Of a DNA stretch of 47,181 nt, positions 7,804-44,959 are shown one piece after another. Every line of letters begins with the position of its first letter. Within the stretch, counting starts at the first letter, position 1. The DNA is from an uncultured virus (IMG/VR IMGVR_UViG_2061766007_001954). Lineage: Duplodnaviria > Heunggongvirae > Uroviricota > Caudoviricetes. The position numbers and the translations under genes are program-made. Under the pieces are notes generated by a model. The model saw only the letters and a list, made by a program, of their open reading frames with translations. It ran no database searches and was not told the origin of the DNA. The DNA is taken from the IMG/VR virus record IMGVR_UViG_2061766007_001954; one strand, given 5' to 3'.

Positions 7804-8307
7804 ATGCATAAAAAGCCCCACGACGAATTCATCCCGAACCTCAGCAAGCGCATCCGCAACAAAGTCTGGGATGACATGACCCAGGATCAGAAGGTGGACT
7901 ACATCCGCATTCAGTTCATCCTTGCGATCCGCAAAATCAAAACGTTGCCCGAGCGGGCGGCCGCTACTGAGAACCTTGTCGCTATGGCAAAGTTCATAAG
8001 GAAGCCCATCTATAACAGCCGTGAGTTGACCTTCAACGAGAAGGGGCATCTCAACACCATTACGATCAAGTGGGCGACAGGCAAAATCCCACAGACCAAG
8101 TGGGGAGCGATTCGCGCACTCGAATCCAGAATACAGAAGTGCGACAGCATCTTGCGCAAGAGCTATCGCGATCAGAAGAACGAATTTCTCAGAACAATGG
8201 GGATTCGTCCTGTGGAGTTGGAGACTGGAGCAGAAGACCTCTTCAAGCAGCTTTTCGAAGAGGAGATAAACGAACAACAAAAATCAGATCAGTTCAAGCT
8301 GGTCTGA
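7804..8307 (+). CDS. hypothetical basic protein
   Basis: 167-aa ORF directly after the promoter motif. Confidence 0.7.
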   Translation: MHKKPHDEFIPNLSKRIRNKVWDDMTQDQKVDYIRIQFILAIRKIKTLPERAAATENLVAMAKFIRKPIYNSRELTFNEKGHLNTITIKWATGKIPQTKWGAIRALESRIQKCDSILRKSYRDQKNEFLRTMGIRPVELETGAEDLFKQLFEEEINEQQKSDQFKLV

Positions 8308-8365
8308 TATAACCAAGGGCGATATCTTAATCGAGTCGCCCTTAACTTTTACTGTGGAGGAAACC

Positions 8366-8566
8366 ATGGAACTGAAAGACATGCTCGGCGGAGATACTGT
8401 ACCTGGTAAGGATGTGGAGATCGAAGAACGTCCTGCTCTTGTACCGAGACAGCCCTATGAGCCGCCGAAGAAACAGTGGCCTGTCATGGAGATCATCATT
8501 CTGACAGTCTACATCTTGAACACTATGATCTTATTCGCAATTTACCAAATCATAAAAACACTATGA
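8366..8566 (+). CDS. small membrane protein
   Basis: GGAGG RBS; C-terminal hydrophobic helix. Confidence 0.6.
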   Translation: MELKDMLGGDTVPGKDVEIEERPALVPRQPYEPPKKQWPVMEIIILTVYILNTMILFAIYQIIKTL

Positions 8567-8577
8567 GAGGAGACACT

Positions 8578-9705
8578 ATGTCTGAAACAATGTACCACAA
8601 ATACACTGAAATAGAGAACATGACGCCCAAGTGGATCCAACAGGTCCGGGATCATGGCTTCGACAAGTCCTGTGCAGAGTGGTATGCTGCCGTAAAAATT
8701 GATGGCTGTAACTTGCAGCTCTATGTGGATGCTGAGGGCATTATGCACTATGGCTCACGAAACCAGGAGCTCGGTCGTTACGATACCTTCAACAATTATC
8801 GTTCGATGGTTGCCAGGCTGCAACTCGATGAGAAAGTTCAGCAGGCGAAAGTATACTGGTGCGAGGATATGAACAAAGGAATCAAAGATATGATTCTTGT
8901 TGGTACTCGCATGTATCCTGTGACCTTCTGTGTGTACGGCGAGTTGTGCGGCGGCGTGTATCGTCATCCTGATGTGGAGCCTGTTAAGGGTGAGTCTAAG
9001 ATCCAGGGGCGTGTCTGCTATGCACCGGATCACAGATGGGTTGTATTCGATATCTGGGTTTTGATCCACACTTTCCCTGAACCGACAGGTTTTTACCTCA
9101 CTCCATCTGAGGTTCATGAGATCTGTGCGCAGGTAGGACTTCCCAGTCAGCAGATTGTATGCTGTGGCACCTTTGATGAAGTCATTGCATATCCGAACGA
9201 CTTCGAGGACGAGACAGGGCATGTCCTGTTTGGCTTGCCTAAACTGGAAAAGAATATCGTCGAAGGCGTTGTCATCAAGCCTGGCAGAGAGCTGCGCTTC
9301 GGTAACGGAGACAGGGTCATCGCCAAGAACAAGAACCAGATCTTCCTGGAGCGCGGTGTCAAGACCAACAAGATCAAGAATCCGCCAGAGCCTATGACAG
9401 AGCTCGATGAGAAGTGGTTCAACACCTATATGGAATTCGTCACCGAGAGCCGCATGATGTCTGTGCTTTCCAAGATGGACACCAGCAACATCACACAGAG
9501 CGACTTCGGCAAGCTGTTGAATGCTTTCATTGATGATGCCGATAAGGACTTCAACAAGGAGTATGGCGGACAGATTAAAGTGCTGGAAGCCGAGAAGCCG
9601 GTCAGCGAGTTCAATTTCATGAAGGTTCTGAAGGCCGCCAAGGGCGAAGCAGCCAAGCTTATCAGACCTCACTTCCTCGAATATCTGCAAAACCAGAAAG
9701 GATGA
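8578..9705 (+). CDS. RNA ligase, Rnl2 family
   Basis: YHKYTEIEN, motif I KIDGCN, GSRN, VYGELCGG, FDI, EGVVIKP, KNKN, and Rnl2 C-domain VTESRMMSVLSK. Confidence 0.92.
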   Translation: MSETMYHKYTEIENMTPKWIQQVRDHGFDKSCAEWYAAVKIDGCNLQLYVDAEGIMHYGSRNQELGRYDTFNNYRSMVARLQLDEKVQQAKVYWCEDMNKGIKDMILVGTRMYPVTFCVYGELCGGVYRHPDVEPVKGESKIQGRVCYAPDHRWVVFDIWVLIHTFPEPTGFYLTPSEVHEICAQVGLPSQQIVCCGTFDEVIAYPNDFEDETGHVLFGLPKLEKNIVEGVVIKPGRELRFGNGDRVIAKNKNQIFLERGVKTNKIKNPPEPMTELDEKWFNTYMEFVTESRMMSVLSKMDTSNITQSDFGKLLNAFIDDADKDFNKEYGGQIKVLEAEKPVSEFNFMKVLKAAKGEAAKLIRPHFLEYLQNQKG

Positions 9706-9712
9706 TCTGCAG

Positions 9713-10567
9713 ATGATACCCAACAAAAACTTCATAAGAGTTCTGACAAGGCTCTATCATATCCTGCGCCAGTGGAAGGCGCATGTATGGATCTGCCATG
9801 AACGCTATGACAGAGGAAACGGTTCGTATGTCCCGGTATGGATCAATAGTCTGAAGATCCGTCTCGGTGACAAGGTGTATGAGTTCGGAGTCGATGTGAA
9901 AGAAATTTCCAGAAGCACCGTCTCACAGTATCTTACAATGGATTACATCACTGAGGCTAAGCTCTCCCACAGAGCACAAGCTTTCATCAAGGTTCTCGAC
10001 GAGTTCTTCCGCGACACCGATCTCCGCATTACGGATATGGGAGCCTGGTCCATCAGAGGCACTACTTATATCGGGTTCTTCCAGACAGCGTTGAGCGCAG
10101 AAATTATCAAGGACCTTATCAAGCTGTATACGGATGTGTGTACCAGAGCATCCGATATGGTGAAAGAGTTCGCTTTACTGATGCAGAAATACAAGGCTGC
10201 CATTGCATGGGAAGAAGACACCTGGCCTGCCGGTGGACATGGCGGAAGTGTTTCGCCGACTACCATGCACTATGTGATACTTCACGTTGCCGATGAACCG
10301 CCTGTAAGACTTCTTGGCGGAAAGCAAATACATGCGAACATGTTCGATGCAATGGAACGACAGACTCTGAAAGATCGAGGCTTCGATAAGAAGGTCTTGT
10401 CCTTCATGTCTGAGCTCTATGAGCTAATGTCCAAATACTACATGGCTATCGGATGGCGAAGCAACAGTCTCTATATGAGCGCGCAGAACATACTGGTCTG
10501 TGATGTTCTCATGGGACTTGGCTGGCTCTCACTGTATAGCGCATGGCAACACAAAGGCGAAGTATGA
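9713..10567 (+). CDS. hypothetical protein with apparent internal duplication
   Basis: 284-aa ORF with repeated helix-strand units (ALLMQKYKAAIAW / YELMSKYYMAIGW). Confidence 0.7.
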   Translation: MIPNKNFIRVLTRLYHILRQWKAHVWICHERYDRGNGSYVPVWINSLKIRLGDKVYEFGVDVKEISRSTVSQYLTMDYITEAKLSHRAQAFIKVLDEFFRDTDLRITDMGAWSIRGTTYIGFFQTALSAEIIKDLIKLYTDVCTRASDMVKEFALLMQKYKAAIAWEEDTWPAGGHGGSVSPTTMHYVILHVADEPPVRLLGGKQIHANMFDAMERQTLKDRGFDKKVLSFMSELYELMSKYYMAIGWRSNSLYMSAQNILVCDVLMGLGWLSLYSAWQHKGEV

Positions 10568-10779
10568 GCAAAATCAAATATAACGAACCCGGCAAGTGCC
10601 CGTACTGCGGAGGCTTTAATATCTCATTTGATCCTATCGATGACTCTGATGACACCGTTACATATGCAGTACATTGCAAGGAGTGTGGTAAAGACTACAA
10701 GGAAGGCTATATGATGTCTTTCATTGGAGTCTATGACGAAGACGGGCTCTGGCATGACGTAAACGGAGAAGACATATGA
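10564..10779 (+). CDS. zinc-ribbon protein
   Basis: CPYCG...CKECGKDYKEGY. Confidence 0.75.
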   Translation: MSKIKYNEPGKCPYCGGFNISFDPIDDSDDTVTYAVHCKECGKDYKEGYMMSFIGVYDEDGLWHDVNGEDI

Positions 10780-11027
10780 CCTTAAAAGAGTTCAACAAAA
10801 CGCAGGGTCGCTGTCCCTTTTGCGGCTCTGATGACTTCGTCTTTGATGTTACAGTCGACGCTGAACCACCAGTTCCAAAGCTGGGTATTGAAATGGATGA
10901 ACTACGCACAGGCTGCATCGATCATGTGTACACAGAGTGCCAGTGTATGGTGTGCGGTTGCGAGTTCAGACAGCTCTATGAGCTGCGTTATGCAGGTCAA
11001 GAGATTGAAACGAAAGGATTAATATGA
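10776..11027 (+). CDS. zinc-ribbon protein
   Basis: CPFCGS...CMVCGCEFRQLY. Confidence 0.75.
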   Translation: MTLKEFNKTQGRCPFCGSDDFVFDVTVDAEPPVPKLGIEMDELRTGCIDHVYTECQCMVCGCEFRQLYELRYAGQEIETKGLI

Positions 11028-13285
11028 GAGATCTAATTCTCTTAAGGGGAGCCCCCGGATCCGGAAAAAGCACTTTCGTGAAAGAGCATCACTTAGAGCC
11101 GTACACTGTTTCTTCGGATCAGGTGCGGCTTATGTTTTCTGCACCAGAGATTGATGCGCTTACTGGCGAACCTCATATCAGCCAGCGTAATGAAAATGCT
11201 GTCTGGGAGTTTATTTACCAGATAGTCGAGCTTCGTATGAAGACAGGGCAGTTCATCGTACTGGATGCGCAGAACCTTCATCCTGCGCGTTGGTTGAAGC
11301 TGGCTGAAAAGTATCGGTATCGTGTTTATGTCAAGCAGATGGAAGCCACGTTGGAAGAGTGCCTGGAACGCAATGCAAAGCGGCCGGCACTTAACAGAGT
11401 TCCTGAGCATGTCATTATGGCATCTAACTGGAAGCTCGATAACAACGAACTGTCCTCTAAAGTTAAACCAGTTACCGAAGAGATCGCCAACGGAGATATT
11501 CAGCCCTTTGATGCAAACGGCTATGAGCATGTCTGGATTTGCGGAGATGTGCATGGTTGCTACGTACCGTTGAAAGCCTTCTATGACTACACAGGAGGTT
11601 TCCCGGAAAAGGATCTCGTCATCTTTGTCGGTGACTACGTAGATCGTGGAATCCAGAACAAAGAGACTTTGGAGCTGCTCATCGAACAGCGCCATAAAAA
11701 GAATGTTGTGTTCCTTGAGGGTAATCATATTTGGGAGACCCTGTTCGCCAATGACAGGGTCGATGAGATTAAGTCCCATGAATTCATGCTCAACACATTG
11801 CCGCAGATAGAAACAACCGACAAGAAGCACCTTCGTGAATGGGCTTCTCGCTGGGGACAGTTCTGTTACTTCACATTCCACGGAAAGACATATCTGGTTA
11901 CACATGCAGGTATTGGCTATATGCCGGAACACTTGCTTTATGTGCCCACTAAGATGTTCACTCGCGGTGGAGCATATGAAGAAGATGTTGACAGAGCATG
12001 GTGCGAGAAAGGCTATGGTCCCAATCTGATTCAGGTACACGGTCATCGCAACTGGTATCAGTATGCCATTGATGAAACCGAGACCAGCATCAACCTGTGC
12101 TCGGCTGTTGAGTTCGGCGAACCTTTGCGTGTTTATGGTGTCACTGCGGAAGATACATATTATCTGACGTTTGATAATCCGGTGCATCGTGCAGGTATGT
12201 CATTGCGCAGACGTGCAGATCTACTGGAAGGAAAAGCCACCGCTACGCCGCAGGAAGTTGCTGAACTTCTGGTATACAATCTGCGCATGGCAAAGGGCGT
12301 CGAAGAGAAGCAGCTCAAGAACGGCGTTTCAAGCTTCAATTTTTCCAGAGACATCTTCTATTCAATGGCATGGGATGACCTGAATAAGATCGCCCGTGGT
12401 CTTTTCGTCGATACCATTCACTGGAAGATCCTTGCCAGAGGTTTTGAGAAATTCTTCCATGCCAATGAGCATAATGGTCTTTTCAACAGCAAGGAATGGC
12501 TCAAAGAGAATCTCAAGTTCCCTGTAAAGGCATGGAAGAAATACAACGGTTTCCTGTTTATGACAAGCTGGAATCCGTACACCGACGAGATCTTCTATGC
12601 CTCAAAGTCCACGACAGAGGGGCCGCATGTCGATATCGGCAAAAAGGTCTTGCAGGAATACTTTGATAAGAATCCTGTGGATGCCAAGAAGATCATCGAC
12701 TACATGAAGACGCACGATGTTACAATTCTGTGGGAGATCTGCAGCCATGAAGATCCGCATCCTATCTGGGAGTGGGAGCATGGCGATAAGGCAGTTTGCC
12801 TGGCAATCGTCAAGAACACTGTCAAGTTCGAGACCATACCTGATCAGGAATTCCAGAACCTTGTCTATGAATGCTGGGAAAGTGTACCGACTACGGAAGT
12901 GGAAAATACCTTTAACAGCTGGGAAGAACTGGAGCCGTGTATCGACAGTGGTATTTATGCACCTGTGTATGAGCCCACTGAGGGTTGGGTGCTGGTTGAT
13001 GCAAACGGATACAGATTCAAAGGTAAGACCGCCTACTACGATGCATGGAAGCGTCTTCGTAACATCAAGGAAGCCCTGCAGGAACATCCCGAGATCGATA
13101 TCCATTGGGATAAGTGGGATGAAACCGCATGGGAAGTGATCCGTTTCATGAAGCTTTGTAAGCCGGAGCTGCTCAAGGAATATTCCATCGTGTTCATACG
13201 TGGACAGTGGCTCGCTACCGGTCATAAGGATTATCCCTATGACATGACAAAACAACAACTACAAGAAAGGATTCGTCCGTTATGA
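11024..13285 (+). CDS. Pnkp-like RNA repair enzyme: P-loop kinase + metallophosphoesterase + RNA ligase domain
   Basis: GAPGSGKST and SSDQVR (kinase); GDVHG, GDYVDRG, GNH, THAG, HGH (phosphoesterase); ARGLF, FEKFF, KYNGF, EGWV (Rnl1-like ligase). Confidence 0.9.
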   Translation: MRDLILLRGAPGSGKSTFVKEHHLEPYTVSSDQVRLMFSAPEIDALTGEPHISQRNENAVWEFIYQIVELRMKTGQFIVLDAQNLHPARWLKLAEKYRYRVYVKQMEATLEECLERNAKRPALNRVPEHVIMASNWKLDNNELSSKVKPVTEEIANGDIQPFDANGYEHVWICGDVHGCYVPLKAFYDYTGGFPEKDLVIFVGDYVDRGIQNKETLELLIEQRHKKNVVFLEGNHIWETLFANDRVDEIKSHEFMLNTLPQIETTDKKHLREWASRWGQFCYFTFHGKTYLVTHAGIGYMPEHLLYVPTKMFTRGGAYEEDVDRAWCEKGYGPNLIQVHGHRNWYQYAIDETETSINLCSAVEFGEPLRVYGVTAEDTYYLTFDNPVHRAGMSLRRRADLLEGKATATPQEVAELLVYNLRMAKGVEEKQLKNGVSSFNFSRDIFYSMAWDDLNKIARGLFVDTIHWKILARGFEKFFHANEHNGLFNSKEWLKENLKFPVKAWKKYNGFLFMTSWNPYTDEIFYASKSTTEGPHVDIGKKVLQEYFDKNPVDAKKIIDYMKTHDVTILWEICSHEDPHPIWEWEHGDKAVCLAIVKNTVKFETIPDQEFQNLVYECWESVPTTEVENTFNSWEELEPCIDSGIYAPVYEPTEGWVLVDANGYRFKGKTAYYDAWKRLRNIKEALQEHPEIDIHWDKWDETAWEVIRFMKLCKPELLKEYSIVFIRGQWLATGHKDYPYDMTKQQLQERIRPL

Positions 13286-14573: not shown

Positions 14574-15473
14574 ATGAGACGCTTAAAAGTTTTATGTGTT
14601 TGTGGCGGAGGCATTTATGGGATCTTGCCCGCACATTTCTTATCCATGCTCCCGGAAGATCAACAAACGCTTAAAGGAATTGATGTCATAGCAGGTTGCA
14701 GCATTGGGGGCGTCCTTGCCTGTGCATATGCTGTGGGACACACGTTCTCCAATGTGGATAAGTGTTTTCAGCAGAGAGCAAAGGATTGTTTCAAGAAACG
14801 TTGGCAAGCAAAGATTAATCCACTGGAGTGCCCGGTATATGATAGTGAAAGCTTGTATAGTGTGATTCATGATATGGTTGGGGATAATCTTATGAAGGAT
14901 GTCCATAAGATATTCCCACAGCTGTCTATCGTTATCCCGGCACTGAATGTTACAACGGATAAGCCTATCTTTTTCCAGAATATAACACATGAGTTTGAGC
15001 AGTTACCATTAGTCGAAGCGGCAAAGATGACATCAGCAGCACCTAGTTATTTCGACTGTGTAGAGTACAAAGGAGACGCTGTGGTGGACGGTGGTTTGCT
15101 CGATGTTGATGGGGCCATGACAGCACTTACTACTGTGAAAGAACTTATGGGTGTTCCCTTTATGGCTATGGACACTATGATACTTGGAACTGGTCAAGAC
15201 GTTGATAAGAATCCGCTGACTGTTAAAGCATACAGGAAGCTTAATATGCTCGGTATGGCTACAGATGTTCTTAGAGCCTATGCAACACTCGGTAATAAGG
15301 AGACCAGCAAGAGACATCTTCGCGGGTTGGGATGTCATATATTGAATTATTTCAATCCTGTAGTTATAGATGGATCTTTGGATGACTGGAAGCAGATACC
15401 AGCACTTGTTAAAGAGGCAGACAAGTGCAGAGAAGAGTTTATCAGGACATGGAATGCCTGGAAGACATCTTGA
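14574..15473 (+). CDS. patatin-like phospholipase
   Basis: GGGIYG oxyanion motif, GCSIG nucleophile elbow, SAAPSYF, DGG catalytic Asp; AAGGAGG RBS. Confidence 0.93.
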   Translation: MRRLKVLCVCGGGIYGILPAHFLSMLPEDQQTLKGIDVIAGCSIGGVLACAYAVGHTFSNVDKCFQQRAKDCFKKRWQAKINPLECPVYDSESLYSVIHDMVGDNLMKDVHKIFPQLSIVIPALNVTTDKPIFFQNITHEFEQLPLVEAAKMTSAAPSYFDCVEYKGDAVVDGGLLDVDGAMTALTTVKELMGVPFMAMDTMILGTGQDVDKNPLTVKAYRKLNMLGMATDVLRAYATLGNKETSKRHLRGLGCHILNYFNPVVIDGSLDDWKQIPALVKEADKCREEFIRTWNAWKTS

Positions 15474-19745: not shown

Positions 19746-20009
19746 ATGGAAGACAAAAACACCCAAACGGTCGATGCAGAAGTCGTCGACGAAATCACTG
19801 ACAAGCACAAAAGGAGCCATACCATGGAATCTGCCGCCACAGGTTGCAGCTGCAGCAGCTGTTGTTTAACAGGCTGCCTGATCCCGATCTTGATTGTCAT
19901 TCTGATCTGGATCGGCTGCATTCTCGCCAAGATCGCCAGGGGCTACAACAAGTCCCATGAACCGCAAATAGAACAGGTGCAGCCCAATGAGCAGCAATCG
20001 GATAAGTGA
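19746..20009 (+). CDS. small membrane protein with Cys-rich juxtamembrane motif
   Basis: GCSCSSCCLTGC followed by a TM helix; AAGGA RBS. Confidence 0.65.
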   Translation: MEDKNTQTVDAEVVDEITDKHKRSHTMESAATGCSCSSCCLTGCLIPILIVILIWIGCILAKIARGYNKSHEPQIEQVQPNEQQSDK

Positions 20010-21051
20010 GCAAGTAATCTTCAAGACCATCTATGGCTCCAAGCTCTATGGAACGGATGGTCCTAAGTCGGATGTCGATATTAAAGGAGTCTTTCTTCCC
20101 TCAATGGAATCATGTTTATTGTGCAAGGCTCCGCAGCATTATCTGTTCAAGCCTGAGACAGTGGAGCATGGTCCTGACAGGGAAGAGGAGTCCTGGCTGT
20201 CGCTGCAGTATTTCATGGGTCTGCTGACACAGGGAGAAACGAACTGTTTAGATATGTTCTTTGCATACACCAATAAGTCTGCCGTACTGGAGACGTCGTA
20301 TGCATACAAGGAACTTATCGATAACAGGGACAAATTCATCACCTCCAATGTGACCAAGTATTTAGGCTACTGCAAATCGCAAGCGCTTAAATACAGCATC
20401 AAAGGTGACAAGATTGCCAATTATGAAGCCTTTATGAAACTTATTGACAGCTGTACAAGTCCATCTTCTACAACGTTGGGTGAGTGGCTCGTACATTTAA
20501 GAATCATGGGGGCTGACTCAGGTGCACCTTTGGGGGATCCTGAGGATTACTTCAAGAATAATACCCATATCGGAAAGCGTTTCAAGATTACGGATAACAG
20601 ACTCGGTGATCATGCATATCTTCTTCTTTGTGACAATAAGGAGAGGTATATCATGGTTTCTGGTCATCTATTCCCGCAAAACGCCAACATCAACAGCACA
20701 AAAGATTCAATCAACAAATGCCTGAAGTCCTATGGCAAACGGGCGTTCAACGCAGCGGAGGACAACGGTGCCGATTATAAGGCACTGAGTCATGCGTTGC
20801 GTGTTGCCTATCAGGCACAGGATCTGCTGGTGCATGGCGAGATTCGCTTCCCACTGGACGAGCTGCAGCTTAAGGTAGTCCGTGACATCAAATTCAAGCA
20901 AACCACAATGTCGTATGATGAAATCGTCGAGCTGATTGAACAGAACATCGAAACAGTCGAAGGCTGTCTCAAGACGACATCACTGCCAAGTAAACCCAAC
21001 TGGGACTGGATCAACGGTTTCATTCTCAGTCAATACAAGGAGACCAAATGA
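19987..21051 (+). CDS. DNA polymerase beta-superfamily nucleotidyltransferase (T4 NrdC.11 / RlaP-like)
   Basis: YGSKLYGTDGPKSDVDIKGVF, GYCKSQA, DYKALSHALR. Confidence 0.85.
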   Translation: MSSNRISEQVIFKTIYGSKLYGTDGPKSDVDIKGVFLPSMESCLLCKAPQHYLFKPETVEHGPDREEESWLSLQYFMGLLTQGETNCLDMFFAYTNKSAVLETSYAYKELIDNRDKFITSNVTKYLGYCKSQALKYSIKGDKIANYEAFMKLIDSCTSPSSTTLGEWLVHLRIMGADSGAPLGDPEDYFKNNTHIGKRFKITDNRLGDHAYLLLCDNKERYIMVSGHLFPQNANINSTKDSINKCLKSYGKRAFNAAEDNGADYKALSHALRVAYQAQDLLVHGEIRFPLDELQLKVVRDIKFKQTTMSYDEIVELIEQNIETVEGCLKTTSLPSKPNWDWINGFILSQYKETK

Positions 21052-21476
21052 GTTCACATATCCGGGCAACTGTTATATTAACCGAGGATCTAAGCAGGGA
21101 TGACCTTGTGCAGTTCCTGTCCGAGGCTGTTGGAGAGGAGGCTGCCGCACTGGCTGAAAAGATCTTCAACATTCCTGCCAAAACAGATCTGAAACGCATG
21201 TTCAGTAGGCTTCACAAGCTTTACAACGCATGGCATGAATCCCCGGCGTACATCGAAACTGAGGACGAGTTCATTCCTGACGGTGATGGCGCTGCTGAGT
21301 TCCAAGGCACGATTCAGGCAATCATGCAACATGGTCAGGGCATCACTACGCATGATATGTTCCGTCTGGAATTGTTGTCTGAGTTTCTTTATGAGCTGGT
21401 CGATGGTCCCAGAAGCAAAGCCTTTATGAAGTCTCTCAACAAGTGGGAGAAGGTATTGCTGGAGGAGAACGCATAA
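21048..21476 (+). CDS. hypothetical protein
   Basis: 142-aa coupled ORF. Confidence 0.65.
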   Translation: MSSHIRATVILTEDLSRDDLVQFLSEAVGEEAAALAEKIFNIPAKTDLKRMFSRLHKLYNAWHESPAYIETEDEFIPDGDGAAEFQGTIQAIMQHGQGITTHDMFRLELLSEFLYELVDGPRSKAFMKSLNKWEKVLLEENA

Positions 21477-21820
21477 TGATGATCCCATGCAAACACATCA
21501 CAATATATGTTCCCTACAGCTCATTTGAGTTTGTATCTTCCAGATTCACAGGTAAGCGAGATCAGCTTCATCCTGTCATCATGAGTTACAGCGCTCTGAC
21601 AATCAGTGATAATTCCCCACTGATGCGTAAGCCTATCAAGGAATGCGGATTAAGCCCGCGTTCTGTGCATGCACTCGGTCGCAGAGGCATCGACACCATC
21701 GGAGAGCTGGTGCAGTACAGCCGTCATCAGCTGCTGCAAATCCGTAACCTCGGTGTGAAATGTGCCGATGAAATCGAAGCAATGCTTCAGAAAATCGGTC
21801 TGAAACTGGAGGCATCGTGA
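21476..21820 (+). CDS. RNA polymerase alpha-subunit C-terminal-domain-like protein
   Basis: PIKECGLSPRSVHALGRRGIDTIGELV..QLLQIRNLGVKCADEI matches the RpoA CTD pattern. Confidence 0.88.
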   Translation: MMIPCKHITIYVPYSSFEFVSSRFTGKRDQLHPVIMSYSALTISDNSPLMRKPIKECGLSPRSVHALGRRGIDTIGELVQYSRHQLLQIRNLGVKCADEIEAMLQKIGLKLEAS

Positions 21821-36823: not shown

Positions 36824-39800
36824 ATGAGTATTGACCTTACAGGGAATACCAACTTTGCCGCTCTGAAGAATCTGCAGGACGAAGTGATCGTGCCTCGTAC
36901 CAGTCTTGCTGCGGTAGATATGGTGACAGCCAATGGTATCGAACGCAATGGCAACGTTCTTAAAGTGAAAGAAGCGGCAGCTGCTGATATGCTGTCAGGA
37001 TCCACAACAGGTGCAGTCGTTACAGCTGACAATCTTAAGAAGGCTCTGGCAATGGGCCAGGCAACGCTGCTTGATATGCATACCCACGAATTGACTGCCA
37101 GTGGTGCTGCTGTTGAATGGAGCTTTAATGGCAATCAGCTGGATGTGTCGGGTACTGCCACAGCTGCTACAGCCGGTATCGCTTTCCTTGGACCTATTGA
37201 AGGCCCTGCTACCAAGAATGGCAAATATCTGGTGACGTTCGATGTGTTTCTGCCATCCACAAGCACAGCCACTAACTTCGTTGTCGGCGGTCCTACTTTC
37301 GTCACTGTGGGCACTTATCCTACTACTGTGACGACCAAGGGTGCATGGGCACGCTGCGCAGGCGTCATCAATACAACCAGTACGCTCTATACTGGCGATC
37401 TGAATCTCAGACTTACTACCAGTGTCAATAACAGCGTTGCTTTCAGTGTCGCCAATTTCCGGTTGCTGGATGTTACCGGTTTCAGTGATGCGGATATTCT
37501 GTATCTTGCGGGTACTGGTACCAAGAACACGACTGTCAGCGGTCAGACTGTGATAGGCGAAGGTGATTCCCAGTATCTCTATAAGCCTGGTTATGGTATT
37601 AAGATCAAAGGCGATACCATTGAAATCGATACTAGTGTTCTTGCAGTAGATGCTGATGATTTTATTTATGGTATCGATATGGACACCCAGTGGGCAGATG
37701 CTACGAGTGCTCGTATTGGAGGCGGACTCAGACGTGTTGTCATGGATCGCAGTAATGGCATTATCAGTGAAGTTGCTGATTTCGACTATATGCCTGCACA
37801 TGATGCATGGCGCCGTTGCGTGATGGACAATCTGGAAACCAAACATGTCAATTACTATCTGGATAAGAACGACAGCAATCTGAAAGAAGACCACACTCCC
37901 GCAGTGCTTACAGGTGCAGATGGTGATGTGATGGTTGAGTGGCCTATCACCTATGTGCGTGTTGATCAGTATACAGACAGCAACGGGCATGCACATCAGC
38001 GTTGGCTCGTAAGCCTTACGGAATTCGATGGCAGTCGTCCGCATGATTGTTTCTATGTGAGCGGTGATGGCAAGACAGTAGGTGTCCAGTATGTCGGCGC
38101 TTTCCGTATGGGTGGTTGCAATACCAATATGCAGCCTGTTGGAACTGATGAGAACAGTTGGACCGTTGTGACTACTGGGAGTGGTGTTGCGCAAGCATAC
38201 TATGGCAGATCAATCGCCGGTGTTAAGCCGATCGCGAATATGACGATTCAGCAGTTCCGTACCGTTGCGGATAATAACGGTGGTCATATCATCAGCTCTG
38301 CACATGCGCAGTTCCTGGGCCTTATGATGCTGATCGAATATGGTACTGATATTCAGTATGCCTTTAATAATGGCTTTGCTTCCAGCGTAGGTCTTGGTTG
38401 GGGACAATACAGGCTTTGCGGACGTACTGCAAGCTTCGGCAATAACAGCACTCCTGCAACAGCGGTTCATGCCAATAGCATCTATGGTGCAGATACCGAT
38501 GATGGTGCGGGCTTCTACAGACCTACCTTTGCAACCGCCAGTTCCTATAGCAACAGCACTTATGCCCTCAGACGGGCTGACAAGGATGTCAATGTCGGTC
38601 TGCTCTCTTATGGGGGTGTTGACTATAAGCGTGATGCATCTCAGGATGTCGGCTATCAGGTTATTATCGGCGGTGTTACTTATGATCGCGGCACTCCTTT
38701 CGAGAATGAGAGCGAAGGCATCATGTATTATAAGTGGACCAATGGCACCACCAATTATTACACGACTGATCACAGCCCGACTACCAGCAGCACGCTTTAT
38801 AGCGATATTTTCGGTGATGTCAGCAGTGCGACGATCGAGGGTGATACCGATCTTCATGCATGGTACAATGCATCCGCAACACCTGCTGTTATCTATACAA
38901 CAGTGGCAGAACCTAATGTCGGTACTGTGACTGTTGTGGATTATGACGATACCACGCTTGGTACTGGCACCAAGGGACTGGATGCTTATGCATGGTGTCC
39001 TGATAAGGCTACTAACAGTGTGCTTTACAGTGCAGTCGGGCATCCGGCAGTTGGTGCTTCGCTTTATAGCGATAGCACGCTTACCACTGCAGCTGTTACG
39101 ATTACCAGCATCGCCGGTTCCACTGATCCGCGTGTTGCTATTATCCAGTGCAGCTATCGTGGCATCGAAGATCCGTTTGGTTCGCAGTGGTGCTTTGAAG
39201 ATGGCGCATGGGGAGTGTTCTCCATGGTCTATAATGGAAAGACGTATTACAGACTTGGCGGGACCGGAAGCTCCATTACAGTCAGTAGCACCACTTATTA
39301 CAAGTGGGCAACTGATATTGATGGACAGCTTGGTGTCAGCGGTGCGGATGTCGTGTATCTGAATACGTTGACTCCTGCGGCCGGCGGCAATGTATATAAT
39401 GCCAGCGGTACGGTTATTGGCACTATCACCAGTGTGACTGCTCCAAGCTGCGGTGCTTTCTGGATGACAACGTCGACCGATGCTTATGCCGTGGTTACGG
39501 CTATCGCAGTTAGCAGCGTGTTCTATTGGCGCGATAGTGCAGATGATGCCGTTGTCAACAATACTCGTTACTATGGATGGAAGAGCGACGCAGGCAATAT
39601 TGTATATAGCACGACTCGTCAGATCGCAGCCAATGGTGCAGTTTATAGCATCAGCGGTACGACCGTAACGAGCGCTGGTACAGCAAGTGCTGTCTACAAC
39701 GCGCATCAGACCTATCTTAAGAACTACAGTTTGATCACCGGCAGTGTTTCGACTGTCAATGGCTATGTCCGCAAGATGGAACCGCATACGTTTGTTCCTC

Positions 39801-40009
39801 TGGTTACGGGTAGCCCTGCGTCTGACCGTCAGTGGTGGTGCGATTACTTCTACAATGTCAAGGCAGAAACTGCAAGTTATCCTAATCCCCGTGTTGTCGT
39901 TCGTGGTGGCTCCCTGTACTTCGGGGGCTTTGTTGGTCCTTTCTGCTTGGACCTGACTCCCGGTTTCTCCCTTGCTCACTGGTCCTTTGGCTCTCGCCTG
40001 GCGGTCTGA
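36824..40009 (+). CDS. DGR target protein: tail-fibre/adhesin with C-terminal C-type-lectin-fold variable region
   Basis: GADGDVMVEWP, YVGAF, LIEYG, YRGIEDPFGSQW, CDYFY, RGGS...FGSRL motifs of phage DGR targets; 3' end is the VR. Confidence 0.9.
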   Translation: MSIDLTGNTNFAALKNLQDEVIVPRTSLAAVDMVTANGIERNGNVLKVKEAAAADMLSGSTTGAVVTADNLKKALAMGQATLLDMHTHELTASGAAVEWSFNGNQLDVSGTATAATAGIAFLGPIEGPATKNGKYLVTFDVFLPSTSTATNFVVGGPTFVTVGTYPTTVTTKGAWARCAGVINTTSTLYTGDLNLRLTTSVNNSVAFSVANFRLLDVTGFSDADILYLAGTGTKNTTVSGQTVIGEGDSQYLYKPGYGIKIKGDTIEIDTSVLAVDADDFIYGIDMDTQWADATSARIGGGLRRVVMDRSNGIISEVADFDYMPAHDAWRRCVMDNLETKHVNYYLDKNDSNLKEDHTPAVLTGADGDVMVEWPITYVRVDQYTDSNGHAHQRWLVSLTEFDGSRPHDCFYVSGDGKTVGVQYVGAFRMGGCNTNMQPVGTDENSWTVVTTGSGVAQAYYGRSIAGVKPIANMTIQQFRTVADNNGGHIISSAHAQFLGLMMLIEYGTDIQYAFNNGFASSVGLGWGQYRLCGRTASFGNNSTPATAVHANSIYGADTDDGAGFYRPTFATASSYSNSTYALRRADKDVNVGLLSYGGVDYKRDASQDVGYQVIIGGVTYDRGTPFENESEGIMYYKWTNGTTNYYTTDHSPTTSSTLYSDIFGDVSSATIEGDTDLHAWYNASATPAVIYTTVAEPNVGTVTVVDYDDTTLGTGTKGLDAYAWCPDKATNSVLYSAVGHPAVGASLYSDSTLTTAAVTITSIAGSTDPRVAIIQCSYRGIEDPFGSQWCFEDGAWGVFSMVYNGKTYYRLGGTGSSITVSSTTYYKWATDIDGQLGVSGADVVYLNTLTPAAGGNVYNASGTVIGTITSVTAPSCGAFWMTTSTDAYAVVTAIAVSSVFYWRDSADDAVVNNTRYYGWKSDAGNIVYSTTRQIAANGAVYSISGTTVTSAGTASAVYNAHQTYLKNYSLITGSVSTVNGYVRKMEPHTFVPLVTGSPASDRQWWCDYFYNVKAETASYPNPRVVVRGGSLYFGGFVGPFCLDLTPGFSLAHWSFGSRLAV
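39892..40000 (+). repeat. DGR variable repeat (VR)
   Basis: Ungapped 109-nt match to 40332-40440; 20 mismatches, all opposite TR adenines. Confidence 0.97.
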
Positions 40010-40037
40010 TCCCCATAGACGGGTATAAGGAGCCAAG

Positions 40038-40140
40038 CGACCATGGGGCAGGCGGCAGGATCCCGAGAGCCAGGAGCGCCGGATGGTCAGTCCAGACGCA
40101 TAGCGGCGCAGAGGCGTGGGATCCTGCCGCCTTATGGTCG
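40038..40140 (+). other. long GC-rich stem-loop downstream of the VR
   Basis: Perfect 15-bp inverted repeat 40050-40064 / 40118-40132, extended by CGACCATG/TATGGTCG. Confidence 0.7.
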
Positions 40141-40331
40141 AGTTTTATCGGTGGTTTGTTCGGAGAAAGTTCCAGGCGAGCCCCCAAAAATTAACCAAAG
40201 TATAACTTTAACAAAACGATTTGTGATTCACGCCTTCATAATTATGCAGCCTCGTGCTGTGTGGCTTGACAGTGGTACGGGAGTAGTTCCTGGATCACAC
40301 CTTCCGTTGTGACAGAGAACTGCCCCACGAA

Positions 40332-40440
40332 TGTTGTCATTCGTGGTGGCAACCTGAACAACGGGGGCAATGATGGTCCTTTCTACTTGAACCTGAATAA
40401 CGGTTTCTCCAATGCTAACTGGAACTATGGCTCTCGCCTG
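40332..40440 (+). ncRNA. DGR template repeat (TR)
   Basis: AAC/AAT-rich invariant copy of the VR, upstream of the RT. Confidence 0.97.
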
Positions 40441-40567
40441 AACGATCTACAAACTTTCTTAAGCTGTTGAGTCGCTACCTAGGCAACTTATTGCAAGGTA
40501 CATTGAGATGGGGTCCTAGGGGTTGGTAAGCAATTGCTGAATGCTCCGGTGTTAGACCGCACGGTAG

Positions 40568-40592
40568 GAGGCCGAAAGGCCTCTTTCTTTTT
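40568..40592 (+). terminator. terminator-like hairpin between TR and the RT start codon
   Basis: GAGGCC-GAAA-GGCCTC followed by TTTCTTTTT, ending 2 nt before the ATG. Confidence 0.65.
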
Positions 40593-40594
40593 GT

Positions 40595-42147
40595 ATGAAA
40601 TCCTGGAAGCACTTATTCGAACGCGTTACAACAAAGGAAAATTTCTTAAAGGCTTTTCAGAAGGCTAAGCTTGGCAAACAGGATCATCCTTCTTTTGTTA
40701 AGTTTGCTTCTGATCTTGATGATAATCTGGAAGCGCTTAGACAGGCTGTCATTAATGGCACATGGCGCCCATGGGGCTATAATACATTTCTTAAATATGA
40801 TGGCAATAAGATCCGTCAGATCGACTATGATCCAGAGTTCTCGGATAACTTGGTACAACATGCAGTAGCCATCATTCTGTTACCATTATTCAGTAAAACT
40901 GCAATAAGAGACACTTATTCAGGTATAAAGGGACGTGGTTTACATGACGGTGTACAACGAGTCTATGCTGCTATTCAGTCATATGGCACCAATGATCCCT
41001 GGGTTGTTAAGATTGATATTCACCATTTCTATCAGAATGTGGATATAGCCAGGCTTAAGCAGATGCTTGCTAAACGTATCAGGGATAAACAATTCTTAAG
41101 TCTTCTTTTTATTATCCTTGACANNNNNNNNNNNNNNNNNNNNNNNNNNNNNNNNNNNNNNNNNNNNNNNTTTCCGCTACTGTGATGACATTGTAATTCT
41201 AGAACAGACGAAGCAAGCAGCCCTCGACGACCTATTCATCATAACACANNNNNNNNNNTGATATAGCCAGACTTAAGCAGATGCTTGCTAGACGTATCAG
41301 GGATAAACAATTCTTAAGTCTTCTTTTTATTATCCTTGACAGCCACCCGGATGGACTTCCCATTGGTAATTATCTGAGTCAGCACTTTGCTAACTTCTTC
41401 CTAAATGACATGGATCACTATATGAAGGAAGCAATCCATTGCAAGCATTACTTCCGCTATTGCGATGACATCGTAATCCTAGAACAGACGAAGCAAGCAG
41501 CCCTCGACGACCTATTCATCATAACACAAAAGTTGCAGGAGCTCGGTTTGTCCCTGAAAGACAATAAGCAGGTATTCCCAATTACCAGACCAGGACATTT
41601 GGATTTCCTTGGTTACGTCTTCTTCCGAAACACCATCAGAATACGTAGATCCATAGAGCGCGATTTTAGACGTGCTGCTCTTTCTTATATAAAGACGCCT
41701 AATACGCATGACGCACAATCTTTAATAAGTTACTATGGATGGCTAAAATGGACGACATCCGGCTATAAATTATGGAATACCTTACTGCCTGGAGTTGATG
41801 ACGTGAAATATCACCTGCCCAAGGATACCGATGCTATGCAAAACGGGACCGATCTTACTGATCTGGTTTACGATGATGGTACCATCCTGAAGCATATGGT
41901 GGATGTATTCAATAGAGATATCATTGTTGTCGACTATAGCACATTTATAAATGACAGGCAAGAGCGTGTACTTAAGATTGTGTTCTTCTTTCCCGATGAC
42001 GAACAACCCTATCGTGTATTTACACAGTCGAAAGTATTGATAACAGTTATTCCTGATATAGCAAAGACCAAACCATTTGAACCATTCAAGACCAGGATCA
42101 TTGAACGTAACAAGTGTTACACATTAGCACATACGGAGACGATATGA
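40595..42147 (+). CDS. DGR reverse transcriptase (about 444 aa once gap duplications are collapsed) with C-terminal extension
   Basis: KIRQI, DNLVQHA, IKGRG, KIDIHHFY, GLPIGNYLSQHFAN, YFRYCDD, DFLGY; both halves share KQMLA..IILD across the gaps. Confidence 0.92.
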
Positions 42148-42752
42148 AGCTTACTGATATTCCAAAAGGGCTGCAGACAGACTTCCTGGAAGAGCTTACT
42201 GCAGATAAGATGCCAGTCATTATCCGTGACGGCAAGACGGTTTATTTCCCTGCATTCATTCGCAAGGTTGAAATGCAGCAGGACGAAGAGACTAAAACTG
42301 TTTACAAATATTTCCTTGTGGAGCTGTCTTACACGGGACAGGACATCAAAGACTATGACAGCTGCAAGATTCAGTCCTATGCAGAGCTGCGTCAGTATTT
42401 CTACGGTCCTGTGACTGTGCAGATGGAGCAGCAGCTTAAAGGCACATTCGGTGCCCATCAGTATGCTGTCAGACAGGCGTTTCCGAAGGTTGCTGATGAA
42501 GTGATCTCCGGTGTTGAGCGGCTTAAAGAGATCAAGCGGCAATTCTGGGCGCTTATTGATGAGGCGACTGCGCTTGCTGGTAAGACGCGTGCAGATCTTC
42601 CTGAAGTGTTCAGTTCTGATGAATTGAAATACTATGCTACGGAGTGGGAGCTTCCTACTGAGGCAATTATCAATTATACAATCCAGTTTACGCTGATCAG
42701 CACGAACCTGCTGCAGAATTGTTTTAACTGGAGTGATCTTTTTCCGGCTTGA
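42144..42752 (+). CDS. hypothetical protein downstream of the RT (possibly tail-fibre associated)
   Basis: GGAG RBS; ATGA coupling to the RT. Confidence 0.7.
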   Translation: MKLTDIPKGLQTDFLEELTADKMPVIIRDGKTVYFPAFIRKVEMQQDEETKTVYKYFLVELSYTGQDIKDYDSCKIQSYAELRQYFYGPVTVQMEQQLKGTFGAHQYAVRQAFPKVADEVISGVERLKEIKRQFWALIDEATALAGKTRADLPEVFSSDELKYYATEWELPTEAIINYTIQFTLISTNLLQNCFNWSDLFPA

Positions 42753-42765
42753 GGAGGACTAATAT

Positions 42766-43209
42766 ATGAAGCATTTTACTTGGCAAGGTGAAACATACGA
42801 TCAGATCCCTGATCCTCTGAAGTTCGAAGATGGATCCCAGATCTCTCCTGTCACGGAAGAAGTTTTCCTTGCAAATGGTGGGACTGTGGAAGATGATGGA
42901 ACTCCCACGCACTATGAAGAGCTTTGTGATGCCTGCGATGTCTTTATTGCAGTCGTTCTCGATATCCAGGAATTTATAGGCTCCACGGACTTCCTTGGCG
43001 GCATCGATCAGATGGGTATGCTGGAAGACAGCGAAGCCGCACAGTCCGATAAGCTTACTGCACTTACTCTTGCACAACGTTGGGCAGCAGCTAATACACG
43101 GTGCAACTTCTTTGCAGATAAACCAGATCTTTATGAGGACTTCCATTCCCCGAACTGGTTCTATTTTGCCTGGGCAAGGTATGCAGAGCAGCTGCAGGCA
43201 GGTGAGTAA
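42766..43209 (+). CDS. acidic hypothetical protein (possibly tail-fibre associated)
   Basis: GAGGAGG RBS; 147 aa. Confidence 0.7.
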   Translation: MKHFTWQGETYDQIPDPLKFEDGSQISPVTEEVFLANGGTVEDDGTPTHYEELCDACDVFIAVVLDIQEFIGSTDFLGGIDQMGMLEDSEAAQSDKLTALTLAQRWAAANTRCNFFADKPDLYEDFHSPNWFYFAWARYAEQLQAGE

Positions 43210-43458: not shown

Positions 43459-43646
43459 TGAAGCATCTTCTTACCGCACTCTTTCTTTTAGCCTCCNNNN
43501 NNNNNNATGCTCTGGGGATTCTATATGCAGCGCAACAAACCATGCGATGAGGAATATTACATATGAATTATATCGAAGTTCAAAATATGCGTAAGCAGGC
43601 AGCAGATGCATTCAATACCGCCGTTGAAAAAGAACGNNNNNNNNNN

Positions 43647-44327
43647 ACCGCGCTTAGTGCTGCAACGGTGTATGATGTCTATGAGACGCCATACACCAAT
43701 GCTAATGGCGAGGGCACAGCTGGCAGCTACTATACAATCAGAATGAAAGAAGCCGGCAAACTGTGGATTACCGACTTCTTTAACAATACCGGCAGTGACA
43801 CCCAGTCAGAGCTTCTTACTAATCCTGCTTATGGGCTCACTGAATATGGCTATAAAGATTCGACCGGCATTCATTCTTGGTCTCTGACAGATGAATCCCG
43901 CATCTCTCAGGGTGACTCTTATAAATACAATCTTTATAAAGGCGAGAACGCCGATGTGATGTCTCGCAACAAGTATTTCCTTGGTGACTTCAAAGGCGGA
44001 GAAGAGATCGAGATCTGGCTCAGCAATGGTACGAGCTCTGTTGCATCCAATACACCAGCAGGATATCATCTCAGCACTTTCAATAAGCGTACAGATGCAT
44101 TAACCGCCACTATGGATGTAGGCCAACTGTTCCTTCCAAGCAGCTCGCAGATCAATTTTGGACTTCTTGCCGTTAGTTCTCAGGTACCTATTACAGAGAC
44201 TCAGACAATGGGTTCTCCTCTTCCGTCTAAGGGGTTGACAGTTGTTCTGTCTCTGTTTATCGGTCTTGTGCTCTGGGGATCCTATATGCAGCGTAACAAA
44301 CCATGCGATGAGGAATATTATATATGA
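43647..44327 (+). CDS. secreted surface protein with C-terminal GSPLP-TM-basic (PEP-CTERM-like) anchor; N-terminus displaced by gaps
   Basis: Signal peptide MKHLLTALFLLAS (43209 and 43458) plausibly joins TALSAATVY...; C-term MGSPLPSKGLTVVLSLFIGLVLWGSYMQRNK. Confidence 0.6.
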   Translation, partial: TALSAATVYDVYETPYTNANGEGTAGSYYTIRMKEAGKLWITDFFNNTGSDTQSELLTNPAYGLTEYGYKDSTGIHSWSLTDESRISQGDSYKYNLYKGENADVMSRNKYFLGDFKGGEEIEIWLSNGTSSVASNTPAGYHLSTFNKRTDALTATMDVGQLFLPSSSQINFGLLAVSSQVPITETQTMGSPLPSKGLTVVLSLFIGLVLWGSYMQRNKPCDEEYYI

Positions 44328-44959
44328 ATTATATCGAAGTTCAAAAGATGCGTAAGCAGGCAGCAGATGCATTCAATACCGCCGTTGAAAAAGAACGTCA
44401 GCGTAGGCTTGCTATCTCAAAGGGTGATCCTCGTGTCGAAGCTGCTTTTGACAATGCTGCTAGACAGCGTGCAGCAACTGCGCAAGCAAATCGACTTGCC
44501 GATAAACAGATGCGTGATCAGTTCAATGCAGAACAGAAAGCCAGAACGCAGGCTCGTGTTAATCGTGTGAACGCAGAAATAGCCAGACAGCAAAAAGCTG
44601 ACGCAGCCAATAGATCTAAAGCTATGGGTGTTGCTCCTACGCCAAAGTCAGAACCTAGACCGGCTCCCGTCAGAACACAGCCTGCTCATATGGGTCGTCC
44701 GACAACGGGTACTGGTACCATGAAGGATGCGCAGGGCAATGTTTGGAGCATTCAGAATGGGAAGCAGACTCTTGTGGGTAAGACACAGCAGCCGCGTCTG
44801 GCTCCTAAACCGCAGACACAGACGAACGCTTATAATACTGCTCGTAGTGCCGATATTAGAGCAGCTGCTGCAAAGGTCGGTCTGAAACCAGGGCAAGTAA
44901 CACGCGTTGGTTATGATGCTAATGGTCGTGTCAACCGTATCAATGGCATTGGACTTTAA
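44324..44959 (+). CDS. basic Ala/Gln/Arg-rich protein
   Basis: 211-aa ORF; helical N-half, low-complexity C-half. Confidence 0.7.
   Translation: MNYIEVQKMRKQAADAFNTAVEKERQRRLAISKGDPRVEAAFDNAARQRAATAQANRLADKQMRDQFNAEQKARTQARVNRVNAEIARQQKADAANRSKAMGVAPTPKSEPRPAPVRTQPAHMGRPTTGTGTMKDAQGNVWSIQNGKQTLVGKTQQPRLAPKPQTQTNAYNTARSADIRAAAAKVGLKPGQVTRVGYDANGRVNRINGIGL

Follow-up and report, generated by a model that had tools for sequence, protein, structure and literature searches.

How does a diversity-generating retroelement (DGR) make its mutagenic complementary DNA (cDNA) when no accessory protein Avd can be found? The question is raised by a stretch of 47,181 nt from an uncultured virus of the Caudoviricetes (IMG/VR record IMGVR_UViG_2061766007_001954), the whole of which we call the window. 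Between 36.8 and 42.8 kb it carries a complete DGR of the 'target gene-TR-RT, no avd' type (TR, template repeat; RT, reverse transcriptase) on a large rumen phage, and the RT of this DGR runs on past its thumb into an additional C-terminal domain. An earlier note, made from the letters of the sequence, had proposed that this domain is a natural fusion of a true DGR accessory factor that replaces Avd. Our sequence comparisons place the domain in a DGR-specific accessory family, whose members are either fused to the RT or encoded as a separate gene of ~95-110 aa. The domain is predicted to have a fold like that of oligonucleotide/oligosaccharide-binding (OB) proteins. From this predicted fold, the lack of an Avd profile match and related loci in which the module occupies the avd slot, we consider it probable that the module is a nucleic-acid-binding accessory standing in for Avd.

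In the DGR of Bordetella phage BPP-1 (gene order mtd-avd-TR-brt; PDB 8ub7, 8ubc-8ubf), Avd is a barrel-shaped pentamer (Wu 2018, PMC5758913; Handa et al. preprint) and is needed for cDNA synthesis. The pentamer contacts both the reverse transcriptase (bRT) and a stem-loop that opens the spacer, immediately after the TR, and cDNA synthesis is cut when this contact is removed; the RNA wraps the RT and includes a single-stranded 'thumb ring' (Handa et al. preprint). Homologues of avd are reported in 74% of DGRs, with 29% lacking any accessory gene and lineage 3 lacking avd, and an 'Avd-independent' mechanism has been proposed (Wu 2018). The same study finds extensions of up to ~150 aa after the thumb in ~20% of DGR RTs, with no motif recognised in them. 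The DGRs of crAss-like phages have likewise been described as a target gene with its variable repeat (VR), a TR and an RT, with no avd. Avd-less DGRs and RT extensions are thus already known; what is new here is a DGR with an OB-like module as candidate helper, in this case fused to the RT.

The reverse transcriptase continues in frame past its thumb

In the scaffold, the RT gene (40595-42147, + strand) is split by an assembly gap with duplicated flanks. Its 5' part (40595..41123, residues 1-176), which matches RVT_1, is followed by a stretch (41124..41259) consisting of 47 N, a 78-nt duplicate of 41452-41528 and 10 N (repeat families D2 and D3), which puts two N runs, 41124-41170 and 41249-41258, inside the gene; the piece that begins at 41260 repeats 82 nt (41042-41123) of the piece before the first gap. 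On this sequence evidence the interruption is a scaffolding artefact and marks no biological break. The gap flanks are near-identical duplicates (95-98%), as though strain variants had been scaffolded side by side. Read through the duplicated overlap, the RT has 444 aa, the same length as a relative found in other assemblies (P0124; 10 member sequences from three sources, longest contig 195 kb), to which the two window pieces are identical at 174 of 176 and 282 of 288 residues. Two further RT relatives, P0002 (449 aa, its tail 50% identical) and P0125 (439 aa), end in the same tail.

The earlier note had read the RT as continuing from the thumb region, SYYGWLKW..GYKLW, through HMVDVFNRDIIVVDYSTF, RVLKIVFF, YRVFTQSKVL and PFEPFKTRIIERNKCYTL, and all of these do lie in a single stop-free frame (41281..42147). 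Because intact RTs of 444, 449 and 439 aa occur in other assemblies, the open frame over 41780-41840 is no peculiarity of this scaffold; the continuity of the tail across these positions is established from independent assemblies, not from reads.

Three parts can be distinguished after the gap, all on the + strand. The palm and thumb (41260..41796; phrog_1423 RT, E 1.3e-43) contain the motifs IGNYLSQ and YCDD and end in ..GYKLWNTLLPGV. An acidic linker of ~26 aa follows (41797..41874; P0124 residues 329-354), and then the ~90-aa C-terminal domain (41875..42144; P0124 residues 355-444), delimited by a structure model, its structural neighbours and a family profile that are described below. A full-length AlphaFold model (mean predicted local distance difference test score, pLDDT, 86.6) divides in the same way, with a confident core at residues 1-328, values below 50 over the linker at 329-354 and a second folded unit at 355-444. 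In a Foldseek search, the best structural match of the core was BPP-1 bRT (8ub7_A), ahead of group II intron RTs, with all 328 bRT residues aligned (TM-score 0.88 on the target, 30% identity, E 7.8e-22). Since the core thus covers the whole of bRT, the ~116 residues after the thumb are truly extra. The motif [ILV]GxxxSQ, which replaces the corresponding group II intron motif, is a hallmark of DGR RTs and is found together with YxDD; with IGNYLSQ, YCDD and a bRT-like fold, the window enzyme belongs to the DGR clade of RTs.

One protein among the relatives departs from this pattern. The last 118 residues of P0001 (211 aa) are identical to the window tail and its first 93 are unrelated to RT, with the junction at ..GWLKW; a rearranged copy or chimerism of the contig may account for it.

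The tail belongs to a family of small DGR genes

The earlier note had likened the tail to a small, beta-rich, stand-alone protein with a given order of motifs, often encoded right after the RT in Avd-less gut-phage DGRs. Such a protein exists, and it is linked to DGRs. A phmmer search with the tail against 1.84 billion representatives returned only 7 matches, among them proteins of 102-127 aa (stand-alone P0003, P0006 and P0007), and a profile search restricted to near-length proteins returned 192. Most of these 192 matches are 108-aa 'proteins' that begin inside Hankyphage-type RTs, at an internal Met (84 of 123 sequences, by motif count); we treated them as pieces of the RT or products of alternative gene calling and did not count them as stand-alone genes. 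A second group, distinct from these and 94-127 aa long, opens with M-x-K-F-S-[DEQ]-F-A-K and appears to represent real small genes, with a typical length of ~95-110 aa.

The kinship between these genes and the tail was assessed with a profile built from 38 stand-alone proteins and no fused ones. It matches the window tail at E 1.4e-11 (33.5 bits), and in a six-frame search of the window the RT tail is the sole match at E <0.4, which supports the resemblance that the earlier note had pointed to; the same search found no remnant or second copy of the small gene in the 328-nt gap between VR and TR or elsewhere in the window. The profile also matches the C-terminus of the Hankyphage RT (22.5 bits), five other Hankyphage-type RTs (22.7-26 bits) and the open reading frame (ORF) directly after the RT of the archaeal virus ANMV-1 (109 bits), and gives no match to BPP-1 Brt or BPP-1 Avd.

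The genomic surroundings of the stand-alone genes were examined in 68 loci (66 viral, 2 from genomes) fetched with a profile of 12 stand-alone proteins. A DGR-type RT adjoins the small gene in 63 of them, upstream of it in 53 and downstream in 10, and a TR/VR pair with adenine bias was detected in 59 of the 68. The VR-to-TR gap of 11 loci measures 352-392 nt and houses the small gene, as that of BPP-1 houses avd (mtd-bbp7-TR-brt order). The other 48 loci with a repeat pair have a VR-to-TR gap of just 32-136 nt (median 61), which leaves no room for an avd gene at that place. In most of the loci with calls for both ORFs, the small one starts ahead of the RT stop, the overlap being 4-68 nt and most commonly 4 nt. 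The small protein is therefore suggested to be a stoichiometric partner of the RT, its gene being so strictly coupled to that of the enzyme, with stop and start overlapping.

The five loci with no RT match are, judging from their sequences, decayed DGRs or contig ends and no counter-examples. One has an RT with a large internal deletion and has kept the small gene (L023, 228-1401); in another, the RT is gone and a TR copy runs in frame into what is left of the small gene, its C-terminal half (L066, 6887-7165), and a third is near-identical to it (L067); the remaining two (L040, L044) reach the contig edge and have the order VR-small gene-TR. The gene-neighbourhood comparison that the earlier note had called for thus turned up no homologue, in any of the 68 loci, that was free of DGR remains.

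One part of the description in the earlier note has to be widened. The gene does stand beside the RT in Avd-less DGRs, as the earlier note had it, but the family extends past gut phages: it is found in ANMV-1 (KP703175, locus L073), where the small OB-type gene (3480-3776) comes right after the RT, in a Methanosarcinales virus, in a genome contig of Methanogenium cariaci (L068), again beside the RT, and in a Desulfovibrio metagenome-assembled genome. By sequence homology, then, the module spans bacterial and archaeal viruses.

In some loci the small-gene frame has no ATG, GTG or TTG before the KFS-x-F motif (L006, 2758-3051; L024, 6977-7291; L038, 6977-7285). Translation might begin there at a non-canonical start or by re-initiation, or a frameshift might yield an RT-OB fusion; frameshifts have been proposed for the RT of Quimbyvirus (Benler 2021).

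Fused relatives and the origin of the fusion

The fused arrangement is not unique to the window phage; Hankyphage-type RTs, as their sequences indicate, carry the tail as well. With the 288-aa ORF of the window RT as query, a tblastn search of 50,697 phage records gave alignments to Hankyphage (Bacteroides phage p00) and related phages at 26-27% identity, which span query residues 2-273 and so extend through the tail; a blastn search of the same records with 40300-42750 found no DNA similarity. Longer protein clusters matching a profile of seven tail sequences numbered 1637. Of the 120 listed, almost every one is an RVT_1 (PF00078) protein of 418-449 aa, and a few further listed rows with no Pfam label are shorter pieces of the same RT. 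Two apparent new contexts for the module, a protein with glycosidase domains (P0179) and one with MutS_I (P0196), proved to be chimeric joins holding only the last part of a Hankyphage-type RT.

In a tree of RT cores (50 rows, quick method, rooted with Brt), the two fused clades nest among the split forms and are sisters, with a Shimodaira-Hasegawa-like approximate likelihood ratio (SH-aLRT) support of 85 and a warning that long branches meet. A single fusion event would be enough to account for this tree.

The predicted fold of the domain

The C-terminal domain has no match in Pfam (including its SSB and OB models), PHROG or NCBIfam, and a search of PDB sequences with the family profile returned only zinc-finger chance rows at E >= 0.04. 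We therefore turned to structure prediction. When a 118-aa piece was folded alone with AlphaFold2 (AF2) from a 44-sequence alignment, its core (residues 30-117) had a pLDDT of 85-92. The DSSP assignment on this model is strand 43-53, strand 59-66, strand 73-78, helix 81-93, strand 99-106 and strand 109-117. After a short leading strand, this gives beta strands 1-3, a helix and beta strands 4-5, which is the order of an OB fold with, in the prediction, a five-strand barrel.

A structure search of 48,161 PDB representatives gave the OB domain of RuvBL2 as the best match (Z 6.9; root-mean-square deviation 2.7 A over 71 residues), followed by the yeast mitochondrial single-stranded DNA-binding protein (SSB) Rim1 (Z 6.5), a Bartonella SSB (Z 6.0) and then PriB, the PRD1 SSB P12, LEF-3, Teb1 OB-B and CST. 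There were 21 chains at Z >= 5, and the top rows are nearly all OB folds; a Z below 8 may reflect merely a common arrangement. Foldseek returned nothing at E <= 0.001 (best 0.024), with HIN-200, Teb1 OB-A, RPA and SSB in the top rows, so that the Foldseek check proposed in the earlier note yields a beta-rich domain with OB/SSB-type neighbours at middling scores. In a feature search of the ESM Atlas, the nearest entries were viral clusters in which 31-40% of members have the phi29-type SSB family (score 0.92). Because the fold scores are middling, the assignment draws on topology and on the consistency of the neighbours, with no single strong match, and we accordingly describe the modelled domain as OB-fold-like.

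The rest of the cassette and the apparent absence of Avd

Upstream of the RT, the DGR has the parts expected of such an element. Its target gene (36824..40009, + strand) encodes a 1061-aa phage tail protein (phrog_5302 'tail protein', E 2.1e-34) with the VR at its C-terminus. The VR (39892..40003) ends 6 nt upstream of the target stop codon and forms a direct repeat (D1) with the TR (40332..40443), which is placed 440 nt downstream, leaving a VR-TR gap of 328 nt; both repeats are on the + strand. Adenine makes up 26 of the 112 nt of the TR (23%), and of the 23 positions that distinguish VR from TR, 22 have an adenine in the TR, each of these falling at codon position 1 or 2 of AAC/AAT-type codons, which is the adenine-directed pattern of a DGR. 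About 30 nt past the target stop begins a long GC-rich hairpin (40038..40140, + strand; inverted repeat I12), with perfect 15-nt arms at 40050-40064 and 40118-40132 and a DNA fold of -39.5 kcal/mol (z -6.0, 0 of 200 shuffles as good). It is a candidate target-recognition element, a GC-rich inverted repeat after the initiation of mutagenic homology (IMH) site being a known DGR element (Wu 2018). The ~150-nt spacer between TR and RT (40444..40594, + strand), characterized by its sequence and RNA fold, is probably part of the DGR RNA, by analogy with the spacer RNA of BPP-1 (Handa et al. preprint). A GC hairpin with a T-run, resembling a terminator, lies at about 40567-40592 and ends two bases upstream of the RT start codon. 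An Rfam scan of 39500-42800 gave nothing above threshold and one sub-threshold chance match.

Where, then, might an avd gene be? Neither PF22296 (bAvd) nor PF05635 matches any of the 181 ORFs of at least 70 aa on both strands of the window, in line with what the earlier note had said of Avd; BPP-1 Avd itself scores 123 bits with PF22296 and 107 bits with NF033474. Nine records that carry the OB module, Hankyphage and 8 viral contigs (7 of the 9 at least 98% complete by CheckV), likewise gave no match to PF22296, with BPP-1 avd recovered as a control at E 2e-37, and the whole Hankyphage record has no match to PF22296 or PF05635. A scan of 15 records with PF05635 gave 0 matches and also missed BPP-1 avd, and these negatives were set aside.

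Could the C-terminal domain itself be an Avd? The Avd protomer is a four-helix bundle. The domain has no Avd profile match, consists mostly of beta strands with one helix and has an isoelectric point (pI) of ~7-8, which sets it apart from Avd.

The earlier note had also seen no credible ORF on either side of the TR. Between TR and RT this holds, as 40444-40594 contains just short overlapping ORFs. Between target and TR an ORF is present, of 89 aa and very basic (40043..40312, + strand; pI 10.8, 9.5 kDa), and we judge it to be non-coding. It has no Pfam, PHROG or NCBIfam match; only 3 near-identical database matches cover it, over 100, 65 and 51% and with differing ends; contigs from two other studies have single-base insertions within it, at 40044 and 40206; and it overlaps the hairpin at 40038..40140. 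All four indels listed over the 1.5 kb compared (39600-41123) fall outside the target and RT frames, and the differences listed for the RT part (40595-41123) are substitutions, with no indel. It should be noted that, being so basic, the ORF would pass the criterion of 'similar pI and MW' (molecular weight) that has been used to call small ORFs Avd-like in ANMV-1 and Nanoarchaeota (Paul 2015) and in Hankyphage (Benler 2018). Which ORF is drawn as 'Avd' in the ANMV-1 figure cannot be identified from its legend (Paul 2015).

What the module may do

We propose that the OB module would bind single-stranded nucleic acid of the DGR particle, either the RNA around TR and spacer or the emerging cDNA. 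It would in this way do the job of the Avd pentamer, keeping the RNA on the RT for priming and for processive, adenine-mutagenic cDNA synthesis. In the window phage it would be tethered to the thumb by a flexible linker and not recruited as a separate subunit. An anchoring or processivity role is suggested because the module is either tethered to the thumb or, in split systems, encoded by a gene that is coupled to the RT or located in the avd slot. Telomerase is itself a reverse transcriptase. Its processivity factor Teb1, so described in the titles of its PDB entries, therefore offers a functional analogy for an OB module on an RT. More tentatively, and by this analogy, the module could represent a second, Avd-independent way to build a DGR ribonucleoprotein throughout the 'target-TR-RT' class (Hankyphage-type and crAss-like phages, rumen phages, and archaeal viruses such as ANMV-1), holding template RNA or nascent cDNA as the OB processivity factors of telomerase do.

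Several observations weigh against a replacement of Avd by the module. The structural matches score no better than middling, with Z reaching 6.9 at best and nothing from Foldseek at E <= 0.001, and the model does not fix where the domain sits on the RT, the linker having a pLDDT below 50. The family is not uniformly basic: stand-alone members have a mean pI of 7.9 +/- 1.3 (range 4.8-9.4, 38 members), close to that of the window domain and lower than the 9.55 of bAvd. For the window phage, our Avd scan covers 47 kb, out of a genome at least 195 kb long, and the profile negatives are weak in any case because Avd proteins are poorly conserved (Wu 2018) and PF05635 missed BPP-1 avd. The small acidic genes found repeatedly downstream might be the true helper, or an additional one. 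Finally, the tree gives no support to repeated independent fusion of the module to the RT.

Four other explanations were considered. The module may work after cDNA synthesis, coating and protecting the cDNA or passing it to host replication and recombination for integration at the VR, with no Avd-like step needed. We regard this as rather unlikely, while giving it more weight than the other three: the nearest structural neighbours are binders of single-stranded DNA (SSB, PriB, RPA, phage SSBs), the module hangs on a flexible linker and is not packed on the RT in the model, and its near-neutral pI is typical of SSB-type OB folds, unlike that of Avd. However, a purely downstream function does not sit easily with the 11 loci in which the gene takes the exact avd slot, or with the overlap of its start with the RT stop, which suggests a stoichiometric partner of the enzyme; the present data do not separate binding of RNA from binding of cDNA. 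It seems improbable that a divergent Avd exists, whether as the 89-aa ORF (40043-40312) or elsewhere in the genome, with the OB domain as an extra. The published pI and MW criterion would admit that ORF, a figure legend in the 2025 Hankyphage paper includes an Avd, the Avd profiles are insensitive and the window is a minor part of the genome; but the ORF lacks a family match, has just three near-identical matches, is interrupted by indels and lies across a strong hairpin, PF22296 is absent from all 9 related records, 7 of them near-complete, and avd-less DGR genomes with no avd elsewhere have been described (Wu 2018).

The gene directly downstream of the RT deserves the same scrutiny. It encodes a 202-aa acidic protein (42144..42752, + strand; pI 4.8) with no family match, and its ATG overlaps the RT stop (ATGA). 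Acidic 'CH1' genes are reported from avd-less DGRs only (Wu 2018), Hankyphage likewise has a coupled acidic gene after its RT (161 aa, pI 5.0; DUF4376, E 9.7e-07), and in related loci two acidic families are found repeatedly behind the small gene, scoring above 64 bits in 11 and 12 loci. That this gene is the real helper, like 'CH1', and the OB domain a structural appendage of the RT is nevertheless very unlikely in our estimation: the downstream genes are not one family, and the OB module is the sole element common to all 68 loci and both fused clades. Homology between the window gene and the Hankyphage DUF4376 gene was tried and dropped (BLASTP E 2.7), and the window protein scores just 9.2 bits against one of the two recurrent family profiles. 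Least credible of all is that the extension is an artefact of the fragmented scaffold or an inert tail. The N runs and duplicated flanks in the RT gene would invite the former reading, which the intact 444-, 449- and 439-aa versions in other assemblies contradict, and an inert tail would not be expected to fold confidently in AF2 and to be conserved in many clusters.

Small acidic genes close behind the RT or the small gene, at most a short gap away, were seen in the window (42144-42752), in L001 (5828-6313) and among the ORFs that come after the small gene in L003-L065. The recurrent ones could be counterparts of the acidic 'CH1' genes (Wu 2018); homology of these to the window gene is unsupported.

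Relation to known systems

The window DGR shares with that of BPP-1 a C-terminal VR in the target, a downstream TR, adenine-specific mismatches, a GC-rich hairpin after the VR, the RT core over all 328 bRT residues and a TR-RT spacer of ~150 nt. It differs in having no match to an Avd profile and in the ~116 RT residues absent from bRT, which form a predicted beta-barrel, and the profile of the stand-alone family misses Avd. With Hankyphage (p00, BK010646; RT of 434 aa) it shares the order target-VR, TR, RT, a homologous C-terminal domain of the RT and a coupled acidic gene after it. The two RTs are 26-27% identical over 272 residues, the target proteins are different, and Hankyphage is a 43-kb transposable Bacteroides phage whereas the window comes from a large rumen phage. 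The tail domain of the Hankyphage RT goes unmentioned in the accessible text of the published descriptions (Benler 2018; the 2025 Hankyphage paper).

The gene order TG-TR-RT (TG, target gene) with no avd is that of lineage 3 or architecture A1 (Wu 2018). A potential accessory gene, PAG1, is listed for three lineage-3 DGRs of Bacteroidia, where its place is between VR and TR; the entry for Avd in these DGRs is empty (Wu 2018). The motif order of PAG1, ..FFT-x-S.., ..FP.., ..YY-x-[FL]-E, resembles that of our stand-alone family when the printed alignment is compared by eye. Wu 2018 called the evidence for PAG1-4 tenuous, and its accessible text gives neither a fold nor a link to RT extensions. 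Our literature search, with subscription journals and some supplements outside its scope, brought up no paper connecting DGRs with an OB-fold accessory, and none that gives the RT tail a fold or role or ties it to PAG1.

As to fold, the closest parallels are OB-fold partners of polymerases (SSB, PriB, phage SSBs, Teb1/CST), which share the predicted five-strand barrel with a helix between strands 3 and 4 and are the top structural neighbours. The module differs from these binders in having no sequence-family match to SSB/OB Pfam models or PDB sequences and in reaching a Z of only 5-7.

An OB-like module that is conserved and always fused to or beside the RT would be a concrete, testable candidate for how Avd-less DGRs work, and these include some of the most abundant DGRs of human-gut phages (Hankyphage, crAss-like). 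It may also be necessary to look again at the small ORFs of ANMV-1 and Hankyphage that owe the label 'Avd' to their size and charge. If the proposed role is correct, the fused form would hold the whole protein machinery of mutagenic reverse transcription in one polypeptide, a minimal, portable DGR for engineering.

Signs of diversification in nature

Contigs, not reads, from four rumen or gut metagenome runs of four studies were compared over 39600-41123; one of the runs is probably the source sample. The assembly breaks at the VR in 2 of the 3 other runs, into short pieces or with a hole at 39898-39988. Among the differences listed from these contigs (111 further differences were counted), four fall inside the VR in non-source runs, X10 (whole VR) and X4 (a short piece), and all four are at TR-adenine positions. 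The VR differences fit ongoing diversification and are suggestive only.

Other features of the window

The window is a scaffold with 11 N runs; besides those in the RT gene, they lie at 3023, 3211, 24575, 30281, 34869, 36774, 43248, 43497 and 43637. Pfam scans recognised no structural gene in the window besides the tail protein. Genes for a sigma-70-like factor (5329-6213, - strand), a small protein with an RNA polymerase alpha C-terminal domain (21443-21820, + strand), a patatin-like phospholipase (14574-15473, + strand) and a dUTPase (888-1313, + strand) are consistent with a large phage.

Downstream of the DGR, two adjacent ORFs with no family match (43563-44327, 254 aa; 44324-44959, 211 aa) share their first 24 residues (MNYIEVQ.MRKQAADAFNTAVEKE), and may be tandem paralogues or an assembly duplication near N runs. 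Finally, genes of RNA-repair type at 6294-13285 and 19987-21051 encode a LigD 3'-phosphoesterase-like protein, an Rnl2-type RNA ligase, a kinase-phosphatase-Rnl1 ligase fusion of 753 aa and an RlaP nucleotidyltransferase, and the cluster looks like a tRNA-repair module for counter-defence.

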